A stretch of DNA of 64,000 nucleotides from an uncultured Spirochaetota bacterium (GCA_963734495.1 CAVTHK010000011.1:640001-704000); one strand, 5' to 3'; positions 36,276 to 41,039 are shown, counted from the stretch's first letter. Notes: generated by a model from the sequence alone, not told the origin. Numbers and translations: made by a program.

Positions 36276-36902
36276 TCAGCGCGGGCCGCGGTGCGCGCGC
36301 GGGTGCGCCTGCTCGCCGAGGGCGACGCCGGCGAAGAACGCGACCTGGAAGCGCTCCACCGGGTAGCTCTCGAGATCGCTCCACGGCGGCGCCCCCGCCT
36401 CGGGTATGAACGCAAGGCGGCCGCCGAAGTAGAAGCCGTGGAGGTCGAAGGCCAGGCCCGCGGAGAGCATCGGGAAGATCGACACCAGCACGGGCGTGTC
36501 GACGTCGGGGCCTTCCTCCCCGGCCCGGCCCGCGCTGCCCACTGCTACGTGCACGAACGGGTCCACAAAGTGGCCCGCGCCCACCAGGTGGTAGCTCAGG
36601 AACAGCGCCTCGGTCATCCAGTCGACCGACCAGCGGTCGAGGGAATCCCTGGAGAAGCTCACCATGTAATTGCCGCCGAACCCGATGTGGTCGACCACGA
36701 CTTCCCACCCCGGCCCGTAGAAAAGCGGCTGGTCCGGCTCGGCGAACGCGTCGATGGCCTCTCCCGCCGTCGGCCGCTCGGAAAAGGGAAGGGCCATGTT
36801 GCCCACGATCCTGACCTGCTCGAGCGCGGACGCCTTCGTGGCAGCCGTCGCGGCCGCCAGCGCGACCAGGAAGACGACTGCCGACCTTCTTCTATTGCCC
36901 AT
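36276..36902 (-). CDS. Exported hypothetical protein, possible small outer-membrane beta-barrel
   Basis: RBS AAGGAGG, signal peptide ending ASA, alternating aromatic/Gly strands ending FQVAFFAGVALG. Confidence 0.7.
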   Translation of the reverse strand: MGNRRRSAVVFLVALAAATAATKASALEQVRIVGNMALPFSERPTAGEAIDAFAEPDQPLFYGPGWEVVVDHIGFGGNYMVSFSRDSLDRWSVDWMTEALFLSYHLVGAGHFVDPFVHVAVGSAGRAGEEGPDVDTPVLVSIFPMLSAGLAFDLHGFYFGGRLAFIPEAGAPPWSDLESYPVERFQVAFFAGVALGEQAHPRAHRGPR

Positions 36903-36992
36903 TCGTGAACCTCCTTTGGCTCAAGCGCCTGGCCGTCCGTTACCCGCACACGGAGCGGCAGGGTCTATACTGGAACACGGAGCGGGCGGGCG

Positions 36993-37021
36993 GCTGTCAC
37001 CGCCGGTTTCCCGGTGACAGC
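36993..37021. promoter_or_regulatory. 10-bp inverted repeat in the divergent intergenic region before the ECF sigma gene
   Basis: gctgtcaccg-N9-cggtgacagc. Confidence 0.5.
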
Positions 37022-37074
37022 AACGCGGTCGGCGGGTGTTGAACTTTGCGAGGAGCCGGAAAGGTTCGGTCCGT

Positions 37075-37554
37075 TTGGCAGTCGATGTCGAAGCCCTCTA
37101 CAGGCGATACGGGCCGATGGTCCTCAGGCGCTGCCGCCGGCTTCTGCGGGACGAGGAGCGAGCCGTGGACGCGATGCAGGACACGTTCGTGCAGGTGCTG
37201 AGGCGGGAACGCGCGCTCGACGAGAGGGCGCCTTCGAGCCTGCTGTACACCATCGCCACGAACGTCTGCCTCAACGTCCTGCGATCCGACCGCAGCCGGC
37301 CGCGGAGCGCAGGCGCGGAGCTGCTGGACACGATCGCCGGCCCGGACGATCCCGCCCGCAGAGCGGTGGACAGCCATCGGCTCGCGCGCATCTTCGCGAA
37401 GGAGAAGCCCTCGACCCGCGTCATCGCCGTGATGCACTTCGTCGACGGGCTGACCTACGAGGAGACCGCCGCGGAAGTGGGCCTTTCCGTCTCGGGGGTG
37501 AGGAAACGGCTGCGCTCGCTGCGGGCGCGCGCCAGGGCGCTGGAGGAAGGATGA
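37075..37554 (+). CDS. ECF-type RNA polymerase sigma factor
   Basis: Region 2 (LYRRYG...AVDAMQDTFV...LYTIATNVCLN) and region 4 (DGLTYEETA...VRKRL). Start is TTG 37075 or GTG 37036. Confidence 0.92.
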   Translation: MAVDVEALYRRYGPMVLRRCRRLLRDEERAVDAMQDTFVQVLRRERALDERAPSSLLYTIATNVCLNVLRSDRSRPRSAGAELLDTIAGPDDPARRAVDSHRLARIFAKEKPSTRVIAVMHFVDGLTYEETAAEVGLSVSGVRKRLRSLRARARALEEG

Positions 37555-38328
37555 AGCCGATGTCGGACCGTACGCTGGAACGGTACCTGCTCAGTGAATT
37601 GCCGGAAGATGAAATGGAAGAAGTCGCCCGCGCGGTCGACCAGGACCCGGACGTGGCGGCGCGCCTGGAGGCGCTGCGCCGCTCGAGCGCCGGGATCCTC
37701 GAGCGCTACCCGCCGTCGATGATGGCCGCGCGCATCCGCGACCGCTGGGACGCCGCCGAGAAGGCGGAGCAGGCCCGATTGCAGAGCCGCTGGCGCGGGC
37801 TGGCGTTCGCGCTGCCCGGGGCGGCGCTCGCGGCGCTCCTCCTGGTCGTGCTGCTGCCGATGCAGCAGGAGTCGACGCGGCTCAAGGGGCTGGAAGGCAG
37901 CCTGGCGCTGCACCGCAAGAGCGGCGCCGGGGATCGAGGCGCTCGCCGACGGCGCGCGCGCCTCAGCGGGCGACGTCATCCAGATCAGCTATGTGGCAGG
38001 CGGCGCCCGCTACGGCGCGATCTTCTCCATCGACGGCAGGGGTGCGGTGACCTGGCATCTCCCCCTGGGGCTTCGCCCGCGGGCCGAGTCGGCGCAGGTC
38101 CAGCCCGGCGGCGAAGTCCCTCTGGGAGCCGCGTACGAGCTCGACGACGCGCCGGGCTTCGAGCGGTTCTTCTTCGTCACTTCCGACAAGCCCTTCCCGC
38201 TGGACCGCATCGACGCGGAGGCGAAGCGCCTGGCCGCCGATCCCGCGGGCGCGCGCGGAGGGAGCCTGCGCATCGCGCGGGGGCTCGCGCAGGCTTCGTT
38301 CCTCCTGGTGAAGGCGGCCGGCCGATGA
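37551..38328 (+). CDS. Putative single-TM anti-sigma factor (ActD-like) with an extracytoplasmic beta-rich domain; apparent extra G at 37929-37932
   Basis: ATGA overlap with the sigma gene; N-terminal LERYLLSELPEDEMEEV anti-sigma-like helix; TM helix ALPGAALAALLLVVLLP. Removing one G joins it to ORF 37993-38328 (GIEALADGARASAGDVIQISY...SIDGRGAVT...ELDDAPGFERFFFV). Confidence 0.8.
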
Positions 38329-40457
38329 AGAGACTCCTCGTCCCGTTCTGCCTCGCGCTGGCCGCTGCGGGGCTCGCCGCCGAACCGGCGGGCACGATCC
38401 GGCGCTTCGCGCTCGTGGCCGGCGCCAACGACGGGGGCTACGACCGCGTGCGCCTGCGCTACGCGGCGAGCGACGCGCGCGCCTTTGCGGCGGTGATCGG
38501 GGATCTCGGCGGGGTGAAGTCCGAGGACAGCATCCTGCTGATCAACCCCGACATCGGCGTCTTCGAGGACGCGCTCCGCCGGATCCGCTCGCGGATCCAG
38601 GCCGCGGCGGGCGGCGAGCGGCACGAGCTCATCGTCTACTACTCGGGCCACGCCGACGACGAAGGCCTGCTGCTCGGGCGCGAGCGTTTCCCCTACAGCC
38701 GGCTGCGCCGCGAGGTTTCGGAGATCGAGGCCGAGGTTCGCATCGCGGTGGTCGACTCCTGCTCGTCGGGCTCGCTCACGCGCGCCAAGGGCGGCTCTCC
38801 GCGGCCCGCCTTTCTCCAGGATTCGTCGACGGAGATGAAGGGCTATGCCTTTCTCACCTCCAGCTCCGCGGACGAGGTGGCGCAGGAGTCGGACCGCATC
38901 GGCGGGTCCTACTTTACGCACTTCCTCGTCGGGGGCCTGCGCGGCGCGGCCGACGCCAACGGCGACGGCGTCGTGACGCTCAACGAGGCGTACGCCTACG
39001 CCTTTACCGAGACCCTCGCGTCGACCGAGCGCACGCAGTACGGGCCGCAGCACCCCGCCTACGACATCGCGCTCACGGGCAAGGGCGACCTCGTGCTGAC
39101 CGACGTGCGCGAGGCGGCCGCGCGCCTCGTGATCGGCCCCGACGTCGCGGGACGCGTCTTCGTGCGGGACCGCGGCGGCGCGCTCGTGGCGGAGGTCGCC
39201 AAGAAGCCGGGCGACGCGCTGCAGCTCGCACTCGAGCCCGGCACCTACACCGTGCGCGTGCAGGAGCAGGATCGCTGGGCGGAAGGCTCGGTGACGGTGA
39301 GCCGCGACGCGCGGCGGGGCACCCCTCTGGATCGCGCGGACCTGCGGACGATCGCCGGCGAGCCCACCGTGGGCCGGGGCGAGGACGGAGAGCCGGGCCG
39401 CAGGCCGGCGGACGACTACGAGAAGCAGACCTTCCACTTCAGCTTCCTTCCGGAGATCAGCTCCCAGGGAATCTACGGCTCGCGCGAGGAGCAGGCGATC
39501 TCGATCAACCTCCTCGCCGGCAACGCCGCGGCCGTAAACGGCGTGGTGCTGGCGGGCGTTGCCTCCTTCGTGGGCGACCGCGTGGACGGGGCGCAGGCGT
39601 CGGGCGTCGTGAACGTGGTCGGCCAGGACGCCTGGGGCGCGCAGCTCGCCGGCGTGGTGAACTGGGTGGGCCGCGACGCCGGGTTCTACCAGGGGGCCGG
39701 CGTGCTGAACCTGGCCCGCGGCTCGCTGCTGGGCGTGCAGAATTCCGGTGTGATGAACTTCGCTTTCGGCGGCGTCCAAGGCCTCCAGCTCGCCGGCGTG
39801 GGCAACGTTTCGGGCGAGCACGCCTCGGGGGCGCAGGCGGCCGGCGTCTTCAACTACGCGCGTTCGGTGACGGGCGCGCAGCTTGCCGGCGCGGTGAACG
39901 TCGCGGGCCCGCTGCGCGGCGTGCAGGCGGGCGTGGTCAACATCGCAAGCGATGTCACGGGAGCGCAGGTCGGTCTCGTCAACATTTCGCGGCACCTCGA
40001 CGGCGTGCCGATCGGGCTCATCAACTACGAGCGCGACGGCAGCCGGCACCTGGAGGTTGCGTGGCAGGGCGACCGCATGACCGGCGCCATCAGGCTCGGC
40101 GCAGGCTACGTCTATTCGCTGCTGCGCGGCGCGGTCGTGCCCGACAGCGACCCGCTGGAGTGGTCGTACGGCTTCGGGCTCGGCGTCGAGGTTCCGCTCT
40201 TCGAGCCCGTCTTTATCGACGTGGACGCTTCGCTGTCGCAGTGGCTGGGCGGTCCGGGGTCGCCGTCGATCAACGACCCCGCGTCGGTCAAGCCCGATCT
40301 GCGGGTCGCGGCGAGGATTCTCCGCCGCCCGGGATTCGCCTTTCTGGCGGGCGCGAGCTTCGAGCTCGCGATCCCGGGATGGCACGACACCTCCGACCTC
40401 AAGATCACGCCGACCGCGTTCGTCGGCATGCAGTTCGGACGCGAGCGGAGCAGGTAA
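38325..40457 (+). CDS. Exported caspase-family (peptidase C14-like) protein with Gly-rich repeats and a beta-barrel-like C-terminus, 710 aa
   Basis: ATGA overlap; signal peptide; RRFALVAGAN, LRYAASDA, YYSGH (His), VDSC (Cys), AQES and FTHFL; about 11 G-x-Q-x-x-G-x-x-N repeats; terminal strand AFVGMQF. Confidence 0.9.
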   Translation: MKRLLVPFCLALAAAGLAAEPAGTIRRFALVAGANDGGYDRVRLRYAASDARAFAAVIGDLGGVKSEDSILLINPDIGVFEDALRRIRSRIQAAAGGERHELIVYYSGHADDEGLLLGRERFPYSRLRREVSEIEAEVRIAVVDSCSSGSLTRAKGGSPRPAFLQDSSTEMKGYAFLTSSSADEVAQESDRIGGSYFTHFLVGGLRGAADANGDGVVTLNEAYAYAFTETLASTERTQYGPQHPAYDIALTGKGDLVLTDVREAAARLVIGPDVAGRVFVRDRGGALVAEVAKKPGDALQLALEPGTYTVRVQEQDRWAEGSVTVSRDARRGTPLDRADLRTIAGEPTVGRGEDGEPGRRPADDYEKQTFHFSFLPEISSQGIYGSREEQAISINLLAGNAAAVNGVVLAGVASFVGDRVDGAQASGVVNVVGQDAWGAQLAGVVNWVGRDAGFYQGAGVLNLARGSLLGVQNSGVMNFAFGGVQGLQLAGVGNVSGEHASGAQAAGVFNYARSVTGAQLAGAVNVAGPLRGVQAGVVNIASDVTGAQVGLVNISRHLDGVPIGLINYERDGSRHLEVAWQGDRMTGAIRLGAGYVYSLLRGAVVPDSDPLEWSYGFGLGVEVPLFEPVFIDVDASLSQWLGGPGSPSINDPASVKPDLRVAARILRRPGFAFLAGASFELAIPGWHDTSDLKITPTAFVGMQFGRERSR
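39520..40030 (+). repeat. About 11 intragenic 14-16 aa repeats (resembling LA_2272-type surface repeats)
   Basis: GAQASGVVN, GAQLAGVVN, GVQNSGVMN, GLQLAGVGN, GAQAAGVFN, GAQLAGAVN, GVQAGVVN, GAQVGLVN, GVPIGLIN and others. Boundaries approximate. Confidence 0.85.
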
Positions 40458-40493: not shown

Positions 40494-41039
40494 CTACCTG
40501 AGCGGAACGGCGAGCGACGTGCGGAACGAGTGGTAGGACGCGAAGGAGTCCTGGCTGCCGTAGGCCGCGATCAGCTCGAGCTCGGTCGCGCCCGCCGCGA
40601 TGACCCGCGAGGCGTCCAGCTCGACCTCGAGCACCGTGCGGCCGCCGCTCTCGGTGAGCGCGTGTGCGGTCGCGAACGGCGCGTCGGACGCGTCGGGCGC
40701 GGCGCTGTGACGGTGGCCGCTGCCGAGGTCCTCCTCGAAGGTCGCGGTCCCGTCCTTGACGTAGCCGATAAAGATGCGGGAGCCGTCCATGCGCCCGGTC
40801 CCCGTGCCGACGGCCACCCAGCCGGTCGTCTGGGCGGACAACGCAATGTAGACGCGGTCGGCCGTCCTCGCGAGCGACAGCGTCGCGCCGCGCAGCTCAC
40901 GGGTGAGCGTGTACTCGCCCTGGTGCACGACGCCGTCGACGACCGGATGCGTCGACGACACCGCGAGCGCCGTCTCCTGGGCGCCCGCCATGGTCGCGAC
41001 CGCGGTCGCGACGAGAATCGCGGCAATCTGGATTCGCAT
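40494..41039 (-). CDS. Secreted DOMON-domain protein
   Basis: Signal peptide; TTGWVAVG..GRMDGSRIFIG (conserved W and M) and a C-terminal YH, as in heme-type DOMON domains. Confidence 0.75.
   Translation of the reverse strand: MRIQIAAILVATAVATMAGAQETALAVSSTHPVVDGVVHQGEYTLTRELRGATLSLARTADRVYIALSAQTTGWVAVGTGTGRMDGSRIFIGYVKDGTATFEEDLGSGHRHSAAPDASDAPFATAHALTESGGRTVLEVELDASRVIAAGATELELIAAYGSQDSFASYHSFRTSLAVPLR

Follow-up and report, generated by a model that had tools for sequence, protein, structure and literature searches.

We analysed a 64,000-nucleotide (nt) stretch of DNA from an uncultured Spirochaetota bacterium (GCA_963734495.1 CAVTHK010000011.1:640001-704000), referred to here as the window, with positions counted from its first letter. 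Three co-directional genes on the + strand (37075-40457) encode a sigma factor of the extracytoplasmic function (ECF) type, an anti-sigma factor and an exported C14 (orthocaspase-type) caspase homologue. An original prediction, made by a model from the sequence alone, had proposed that these genes form an operon for caspase-triggered signalling across the envelope. We find that the cassette is a real, widely conserved bacterial gene unit, and we propose that the protease may act on the anti-sigma factor beside it.

The first gene (37075..37554, +) encodes an ECF sigma factor, as predicted. It matches Pfam Sigma70_r2 (E 4.3e-14; 52.5 bits against a cut-off of 24), Sigma70_r4_2 (E 3.6e-7; 30.2 bits, cut-off 25.7) and Sigma70_ECF (E 1.1e-5), as well as TIGR02937 (74.9 bits, cut-off 42.9), and the presence of the sigma2 and sigma4 regions together with the absence of region 3 places it in the ECF (group 4) branch of the sigma-70 family. 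All NCBIfam subfamily and equivalog models scored below their own cut-offs, so that no specific ECF group was assigned. The TTG start at 37075 given in the original prediction is probably right; an earlier in-frame GTG at 37036 is the less likely start because a conserved promoter-like motif overlaps it. This motif, GGTGACA-N16-GGTGTT (37013..37040, +), is a candidate autoregulated ECF-type promoter. On the sense strand, GT[GA]AC-N16-18-GTGTT was found in 47 of 68 regions upstream of related sigma genes and in none of 68 downstream control regions of equal length.

To place the cassette among other bacteria, species-representative genomes (one per species) were scanned, which gave 549 relatives among 598 candidate stretches, and the best 80 loci were kept. 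Seventy-two of these were testable, having at least 1,400 nt upstream of the caspase gene, and were searched with hidden Markov models built from relatives: 60 contain the trio, 11 the anti-sigma and caspase genes only, and 1 neither regulator. The remaining eight loci were too short to be judged fully, and in six of them the anti-sigma gene lies at the contig edge. The anti-sigma gene stands directly 5′ of the caspase gene in 71 of the 72 testable loci, across several phyla, and the tightest pair is therefore anti-sigma with caspase, not sigma with caspase. A lack of conserved linkage had been named beforehand as fatal to the original prediction, which on this point is clearly not refuted.

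The same association was seen at closer and wider range. In all 11 loci from relatives of the same order, sigma and the anti-sigma C-terminal domain lie upstream of the caspase gene and are co-oriented with it, and the anti-sigma N-terminal part was detected in 10. Across the whole genomes of 41 relatives, 25 had strong adjacent matches to both anti-sigma and caspase, 14 had neither, and one had an anti-sigma fragment only, on a short contig; presence and absence of the two genes agreed in 39 of 40 relatives. These relatives are kin and such counts overstate their independence, although the pattern of presence and absence across families is a scattered one. The loci retained from the species scan belong to Spirochaetota (including Leptospirales, Treponemataceae, Marispirochaeta and Breznakiella homolactica) and Myxococcota (Archangium, Corallococcus, Myxococcus, Haliangium, Polyangia and Bradymonadales), with single metagenome-assembled genomes (MAGs) labelled Eiseniibacteriota, Fibrobacteres and FCPU426.

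Some loci depart from the usual layout. The sole testable caspase locus without an anti-sigma gene (L029, a Polyangia MAG) has upstream of it, in opposite orientation, a pair of paralogous genes whose Cys-rich products resemble lipoproteins. Another locus (L075) has two matches to the anti-sigma C-terminal domain (1165-1575 and 2498-2911): besides its expected position, the domain is also found ahead of the sigma gene. A Myxococcus locus (L102; G042:C15:17215-20973) encodes the C terminus of an ECF sigma factor and an anti-sigma factor with a zinc motif (HxxxCxxC), with no caspase gene downstream; its anti-sigma factor aligns with an ActD query at 31% identity over nearly the whole length (E 6.5e-5).

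ActD is also the name attached to the myxobacterial homologues of the window anti-sigma factor, which are entered in databases as ActD or ActD-like and share 49-56% identity with its C-terminal part. In six Myxococcus-type loci (L048, L053, L063, L064, L068 and L089), and also in L098, the anti-sigma/caspase pair follows the C terminus of a sigma54 activator and an epimerase-GNAT fusion. The order in the six loci is sigma54-activator C terminus, epimerase-GNAT fusion, ActD homologue and caspase, and an ECF sigma gene is absent. This order fits that of the act operon, which these loci probably are; the caspase would then be its unremarked downstream gene. Gronewold and Kaiser are said to have described, in 2001, the Myxococcus act operon and an actD phenotype in the timing of C-signal production.

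The anti-sigma gene and its reading frame

The middle gene was originally described as joined to both neighbours by ATGA overlaps. Both overlaps were confirmed: at 37551-37554 the sigma TGA overlaps the anti-sigma ATG (37551), and at 38325-38328 a frame-1 stop overlaps the caspase ATG. The gene itself is not one intact open reading frame (ORF), a break that the original prediction missed: the 778 nt that run from 37551 to 38328 do not divide evenly into codons, and the start and the stop (38326-38328) sit in different frames. The N-terminal part (37551..37931, +, frame 0), which aligns to residues 1-126 of intact homologues, would comprise a cytoplasmic four-helix domain, one transmembrane helix and a juxtamembrane linker. 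The C-terminal part (37933..38328, +, frame 1), whose stop overlaps the caspase start codon, would form a periplasmic beta-sandwich resembling DUF4384. Between them lies a GGGG run (37929..37932, +) with one extra base, seen as a one-base gap in the DNA alignment with a genome of the same genus. Aligned with nine intact homologues, the translations of the two parts meet without gap or overlap (...LALHRKSGAG / IEALADG...), and frame 0 stays open into the caspase gene, giving an ORF of 1,147 amino acids (aa) at 37014-40457.

The extra G is probably an assembly error, and the gene is not to be called a pseudogene. We read it in this way because the base is missing from the same-genus genome, from three contigs of other metagenomes and from a 258-aa protein with 97% identity. 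Two of the contigs come from run X1 and one from run X3, each short by one base at 37929 or 37930, and one X1 contig differs from the window at 7 positions over 483 nt. In a protein collection, in-frame 258-aa proteins match the C-terminal piece at 97%, 92% and 91% identity, and in all 11 relatives of the same order the anti-sigma factor is one ORF of about 255-300 aa. Other genes of the source genome also look frameshifted: the coding sequence of an efflux membrane-fusion protein (L095; G000:C1:512500-514100) is divided among two or three frames, and that of an exported protein (L093; G000:C13:376000-378000) appears to decay to Arg-rich sequence after about 190 aa; these frame breaks suggest that the genome contains many assembly indels.

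Alternatively, the extra G could be real and the module broken in this strain, with the anti-sigma factor truncated or fused out of frame as part of a decaying or deregulated remnant. This possibility is independent of the other alternatives weighed below. In its favour are the presence of the insertion in the assembly as given and the failure to find a sequencing run that contains this exact genome (the best share of sampled words was 0.17). Such decay is hard to reconcile with the in-frame copies in the same-genus genome, in the three contigs from two other metagenomes and in the 258-aa proteins, with the full conservation of the frame-1 sequence past the break, with the similar frame breaks in another gene of the genome, which are typical of assembly indels, or with a genome that is 83% complete in only 18 contigs. 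We therefore consider a broken copy highly improbable. Programmed +1 frameshifting was considered and rejected: it is unlikely because relatives are without the extra base, and neither a stop nor a slippery context is evident.

The anti-sigma factor is predicted to be a single-pass membrane protein with a cytoplasmic N-terminal domain and a periplasmic beta-sandwich. A model of the same-genus protein (predicted local distance difference test (pLDDT) 84) has four helices at residues 6-68 (pLDDT >90), a low-confidence stretch at 73-109 that holds a hydrophobic segment (about residues 80-97) and a linker, and a beta-sandwich at 114-251 with high pLDDT. The N-terminal part resembles the NCBIfam anti-sigma model NF052375 (E 8e-8), its 32.5 bits lying below the cut-off of 100, and the protein is without a Cys/His zinc motif. 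The window piece of the sandwich scores 14.7 bits (E 0.032) against DUF4384 (PF14326), below the cut-off of 27; the domain was matched at E<=0.01 in 4 of 11 family members (best 3.7e-5), and among database homologues PF14326 is annotated in one, while one is entered as a DUF4384 protein. A Foldseek search with the sandwich gave weak immunoglobulin-like or carbohydrate-binding-module-like matches only, and a sequence search of solved structures with the anti-sigma factor gave nothing meaningful. The protein is not of the DdvA type, in which a protease domain is part of the anti-sigma factor: in frame it is 258 aa long, a CHAT/TPR match is absent, and the protease is encoded by a separate gene.

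The C14 protease, a shared motif and the flanking genes

The third gene (38325..40457, +) encodes an exported C14 protease of 710 aa that belongs to Peptidase_C14 (PF00656, 29.2 bits against a cut-off of 21.4); its 62 bits against the NCBIfam caspase model of the EACC1-associated type (NF047832) fall below that model's cut-off of 140. The caspase-type dyad is intact, as originally read. The catalytic His109 (YYSGH; 38649..38651, +) and Cys146 (DSC; 38760..38762, +) are both invariant in 40 of 40 aligned homologues, and the His motif and D[S/A]C are each present in 92 of 92 loci.

The AlphaFold2 model of the protein (mean pLDDT 80.8) likewise bore out the predicted domain order. The chain opens with a helix that by eye looks like a signal peptide; it is followed by the caspase alpha/beta domain at about residues 25-236, with low-confidence loops at 148-186 and 230-255, and by a small beta-sandwich at 257-343. 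An all-beta region at 366-706, with pLDDT mostly >90, consists of hairpin repeats and then eight longer strands at 574-706. The repeats match the LA_2272 surface repeat (NF047436) in two stretches (45.6 bits, cut-off 25) and form a solenoid of regular beta-hairpins at about 366-570 (pLDDT >90).

Foldseek searches with this model returned caspase folds (MALT1, caspases and metacaspases, E 3e-3 to 1e-2) and eight-stranded barrels. The best match was the designed barrel 6x9z (E 1.1e-3, target-normalised TM-score 0.73), followed by OmpA, NspA, PagL and OprF at E 2e-3 to 1.5e-2; no match reached E<=1e-3. Target-normalised TM-scores were 0.41-0.73 for the eight-stranded barrels and 0.24 for a full-length OmpA model. 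Language-model look-alikes of residues 360-710, taken as a lead only, were unnamed or named as outer-membrane barrels. The eight C-terminal strands probably form a barrel that anchors the protease in the outer membrane, and since a barrel with an even number of strands would leave the N-terminal domains in the periplasm, the catalytic domain is predicted to be there. In relatives the last residue is mostly aromatic or hydrophobic (as in ...FGIQLF and ...FAGIKF), a further point in favour of the outer-membrane anchor. The window protein carries six further residues past the barrel-terminal FVGMQF, a short basic tail (GRERSR; 40437-40454) that is carried by this genus.

Sequence searches of solved structures with the caspase profile gave no match at E<=0.01, and those with the caspase domain alone brought up only weak EF-hand-loop matches; neither query could be aligned residue by residue with a solved metacaspase. 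An EF-hand-like loop, AADANGDGVVTLNE, spans caspase residues 208-221 (38946..38987, +) and weakly matches the EF-hand loops of calcium-binding proteins (E 0.22). The loop (DANGDGVVTLNE) is kept in the caspase family, with D210, D214, V217, T218, L219, N220 and E221 invariant or conserved in at least 90%, and it may be a calcium-control site, as in metacaspases. The Asp of the D-S-C motif is, we assume, linked to an acidic S1 pocket. All characterised C14 enzymes other than caspases are reported to prefer Arg or Lys at P1 (PMC5756287; PMC6426788). By analogy, on the C14 family rule (PMC5756287) and the D-S-C motif, the window enzyme would be expected to cleave after Arg or Lys.

A candidate site of this kind occurs in both the protease and the anti-sigma factor. 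In the latter, R-L-K-G (R110-G113; 37878..37889, +) is a candidate cleavage site in the linker; R-x-K-G is nearly invariant there, being shared by 72 of 77 anti-sigma sequences (K-G by 76 of 77), and Thr is the commonest residue ahead of the Arg (37 of 72 motifs). In the same-genus model the motif is placed in a linker with pLDDT<50, four residues ahead of the first sandwich strand. In the protease, R153-A-K-G156 (38781..38792, +) is a candidate autoprocessing site: R-x-K-G lies exactly 7 residues past the catalytic Cys in 92 of 92 loci, again with Thr as the commonest preceding residue (51 of 80 motifs), and within the loop at 148-186 where pLDDT is <50. The position of this post-Cys loop matches that of the inter-subunit linker at which caspases self-process (PMC5756287). 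The shared R-x-K-G fits the Arg/Lys preference of non-metazoan C14 proteases.

The genes that flank the cassette include one that may belong to it. Divergent from the trio, an exported 208-aa protein resembling an outer-membrane beta-barrel (36276..36902, −) faces a mirror copy of the promoter motif, GGTGACA-N-GTGTT (36974..37001, −), found in a genome scan (contig C11 minus strand, 677001); the motif occurs in antisense orientation in 6 of 68 upstream regions, that of the same-genus genome among them. A Pfam family search with the 208-aa protein gave nothing at E<=0.05. Its language-model look-alikes (score 0.96; a lead only) fall in clusters that go by the name 'outer membrane protein beta-barrel domain', in one of which PF13505 is carried by 87% of members. 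In 13 of 91 other loci a homologue adjoins the trio, sometimes upstream in divergent orientation and sometimes downstream of the caspase gene, and the protein is a probable fourth component or regulon member. Other sites with the strict motif, by genes for an exported protein without an assigned family, a DUF2807 protein, a small lipoprotein and an efflux adaptor, are unconvincing regulon candidates, the exception being the two back-to-back copies at the locus.

On the other side, the caspase gene has a convergent neighbour (40494-41039, −) that encodes an exported DOMON-domain protein, the match to the domain (E 2.9e-7) falling slightly short of the cut-off; no homologue of it adjoins the trio in other loci. 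The remaining flanking ORFs, read from their translations without a family search, include a mannosidase-like protein, oxidoreductase-like proteins and ATP synthase subunits. Judged from the same translations, with no CRISPR-specific search, the flanks hold no type III-E Craspase module (Cas7-11, Csx29, Csx30 and Csx31).

A proposed pathway of sigma release and its alternatives

The gene linkage and the shared motif allow us to propose a role for the protease, which we regard as evenly poised between right and wrong. It is a more specific form of the original prediction, in which an envelope receptor-protease senses a ligand and its caspase domain is the dedicated site-1 protease; support for that role is indirect and comes from the conserved dyad, the R-x-K-G of both proteins, the Arg/Lys preference of non-metazoan C14 enzymes and an M50 protease in the genome. 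According to this proposal, the anti-sigma factor would hold the sigma factor at the inner membrane, and the barrel would anchor the protease in the outer membrane, with the LA_2272 solenoid and the small beta-sandwich holding the catalytic domain in the periplasm. An envelope signal would activate the protease, perhaps through self-cleavage at its own T-R-x-K-G loop, and the active enzyme would cut the anti-sigma factor at the R-x-K-G linker (site 1). An RseP-type M50 protease would then cut within the membrane (site 2), and the freed sigma factor would transcribe its own operon from the GGTGACA-N16-GGTGTT promoter, which would create positive feedback. In spirochaetes it would also transcribe the small outer-membrane-barrel-like gene from such a promoter. 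A site-2 protease is available in this genome (PF02163 on contig 8, E 6e-51, above the cut-off), and its action on this anti-sigma factor is a candidate step by analogy. Gene order, domain content, conservation, the protein motifs and the promoter motif are what the sequences show; membrane topology, cleavage, signal and feedback are what we infer for the cassette. Complex prediction with the caspase domain and small beta-sandwich (residues 22-350) and the anti-sigma periplasmic region (residues 97-254) of the same-genus proteins scored 0.05 against a mark of 0.32, a result that bears neither way.

Several observations weigh against this proposal. The assignment of an outer-membrane barrel draws on Foldseek matches at E about 1e-3 and on language-model look-alikes, and the sandwich scores below the DUF4384 cut-off. 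The R-x-K-G of the caspase could be part of a structural or substrate-binding loop, and that of the anti-sigma factor could be capping residues of the beta-sandwich. The strict promoter motif is enriched about 2-fold in the genome (14 found against 7.8 expected from base composition). In 11 of 72 loci, of the Myxococcus/Archangium type, there is no adjacent sigma gene, so that the pair exists without a linked ECF sigma factor. Finally, co-transcription would be equally expected if the protease were simply an output of the sigma factor. In that case the sigma/anti-sigma pair would itself sense envelope stress through a general site-1 protease, and the outer-membrane caspase would be an effector that, for example, degrades or processes proteins of the periplasm or outer membrane. 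Such an arrangement would agree with the position of the caspase gene downstream of the regulators behind a shared autoregulated promoter, with the apparent co-regulation of a second envelope gene (that of the 208-aa outer-membrane-barrel-like protein) and with the Polyangia locus that has a caspase gene without an anti-sigma gene. It would leave the T-R-x-K-G shared with the anti-sigma linker unexplained. Moreover, the pairing of anti-sigma with caspase (71 of 72) is tighter than that of sigma with caspase (60 of 72) and is kept without the sigma factor in Myxococcus-type loci, which is unexpected for a mere regulon member; a protease that serves only as output is thus, in our view, rather unlikely.

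The tight pairing and co-inheritance of anti-sigma and caspase would also be seen if the two proteins bound each other without signalling proteolysis, the caspase being an outer-membrane contact co-sensor (as in FecA-FecR or RseB-RseA) or the anti-sigma sandwich inhibiting or docking the protease. Fusions of DUF4384 with protease domains are reported to be frequent (bioRxiv 10.1101/2022.08.17.504292, citing CDD), a hint that the module is protease-associated. A fused form of C14 with the DUF4384-like sandwich was found in none of the best 120 of 456 longer relatives of the anti-sigma beta-sandwich, so direct docking is without support from a close fusion, and the retention of the dyad in 92 of 92 loci points to a genuinely active protease. 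We judge binding without cleavage to be clearly improbable.

The proposal of site-1 cleavage by the caspase can be carried further, tentatively and with more doubt than confidence, to a switch that spans the periplasm. A caspase domain on a rigid beta-solenoid stalk would reach the anti-sigma factor upon envelope perturbation or in response to calcium and cut T-R-x-K-G in both proteins. Because the protease is co-transcribed with its sigma factor, the response would be self-amplifying and possibly all-or-none. In Myxococcus, the pair of ActD and caspase without a sigma factor would time developmental C-signalling. If so, bacterial caspase homologues would gain in envelope signalling their first defined class of physiological substrates.

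The cassette bears on two little-understood questions, what bacterial caspase homologues (orthocaspases) cut and how most ECF anti-sigma factors are first cleaved. It offers a candidate protease and substrate pair, together with a specific four-residue candidate site and a promoter motif that is usable as a reporter. As it is found in hundreds of species, some of which are cultivable and genetically tractable myxobacteria, the hypothesis is directly testable. If it is true, caspase-type control of sigma factors would extend past the cytoplasmic, CRISPR-linked Craspase and the fused DdvA to an envelope pathway that is general and stands alone, and an explanation might be at hand for the old actD phenotype of Myxococcus.

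Relation to known systems

In the sigmaE/RseA/DegS/RseP system of E. coli and the SigW/RsiW/PrsW/RasP system of B. subtilis, the sigma factor is released by a site-1 and then a site-2 cut of the anti-sigma factor. The window cassette is similar to both in its ECF sigma factor, in a predicted single-pass anti-sigma factor encoded by the adjacent gene, and in the proposed order of a site-1 cut followed by an M50 site-2 cut. In place of DegS, a serine protease, or PrsW, the site-1 role would here fall to a C14 caspase homologue that the operon itself encodes and that probably has an outer-membrane tether. The periplasmic domain of the anti-sigma factor, unlike that in the RseA and RsiW pathways, is predicted to be a beta-sandwich resembling DUF4384.

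The original prediction had stated that no mechanism of this kind was demonstrated, which is outdated in view of two published links between caspase-superfamily proteases and ECF-type sigma factors. In type III-E Craspase, the caspase-like Csx29 (TPR-CHAT) cleaves Csx30, which is bound to RpoE and Csx31 (bioRxiv 10.1101/2022.08.17.504292; PMC10028731). The likeness lies in a caspase-like protease set against a sigma-binding inhibitor with a flexible linker, although cleavage is demonstrated there and a candidate here. One group of Csx30 C-terminal domains is DUF4384 (bioRxiv 10.1101/2022.08.17.504292) and resembles the periplasmic domain of the window anti-sigma factor, itself below the Pfam cut-off. 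Craspase is cytoplasmic, RNA-guided and CRISPR-linked and uses a CHAT protease, whereas the window system would be periplasmic, uses a C14 protease and has no CRISPR context in the flanking translations.

The second link is the M. xanthus DdvS/DdvA system, in which a fused periplasmic TPR-CHAT is proposed, not yet shown, to be the anti-sigma factor's own site-1 protease, and the RseP dependence of the truncated anti-sigma factor is shown (PMC11506125). It shares with the window cassette an ECF sigma factor, a transmembrane anti-sigma factor and, in the periplasm, a caspase-superfamily protease for which a cut in a flexible juxtamembrane linker is proposed (PMC11506125). In DdvA, the TPR-CHAT is fused, the N-terminal domain binds zinc and self-cleavage is proposed to occur in trans, whereas here the protease is a separate C14 protein with a predicted outer-membrane anchor and the anti-sigma factor is without a zinc motif. 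DdvA controls a CBASS/CRISPR island (PMC11506125); the window locus has no flanking defence genes as judged by reading translations, with no CRISPR-specific search. CHAT proteins have also been noted in the context of group ECF54 (PMC8999054). In our literature searches, the combination of an orthocaspase with a sigma factor led to an earlier DdvS/DdvA study only, and no description was found of a trio of ECF sigma, anti-sigma and Peptidase_C14 or of ECF with DUF4384. The main text of the ECF reclassification paper (PMC7826278) does not mention caspase, CHAT, C14 or DUF4384; its supplements on group contexts may bear on novelty.

A neighbour-encoded substrate has a precedent among prokaryotic C14 enzymes, as the cyanobacterial orthocaspase MaOC1 is reported to cleave an antitoxin encoded by the neighbouring gene (PMC7935541). 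MaOC1 and the window enzyme are alike in their C14 family, their His-Cys dyad, cleavage after basic residues (predicted for the latter) and a substrate, here a candidate, encoded next door (PMC7935541; PMC5756287). They differ in that MaOC1 is cytoplasmic and linked to a toxin-antitoxin pair, whereas the window enzyme is exported, carries LA_2272 repeats and a predicted barrel, and is linked to a sigma/anti-sigma pair. The Myxococcus ActD loci, in turn, differ from the window trio in having no adjacent ECF sigma gene. Control of ECF sigma factors by regulated proteolysis is known; what would be new here is that the C14 enzyme is exported, encoded by its own gene and fitted with a stalk of LA_2272 repeats and a predicted barrel, and that its partner is a small DUF4384-like anti-sigma factor. 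The window cassette is unlike both Craspase and DdvA, the two published links between the caspase superfamily and ECF-type sigma factors.

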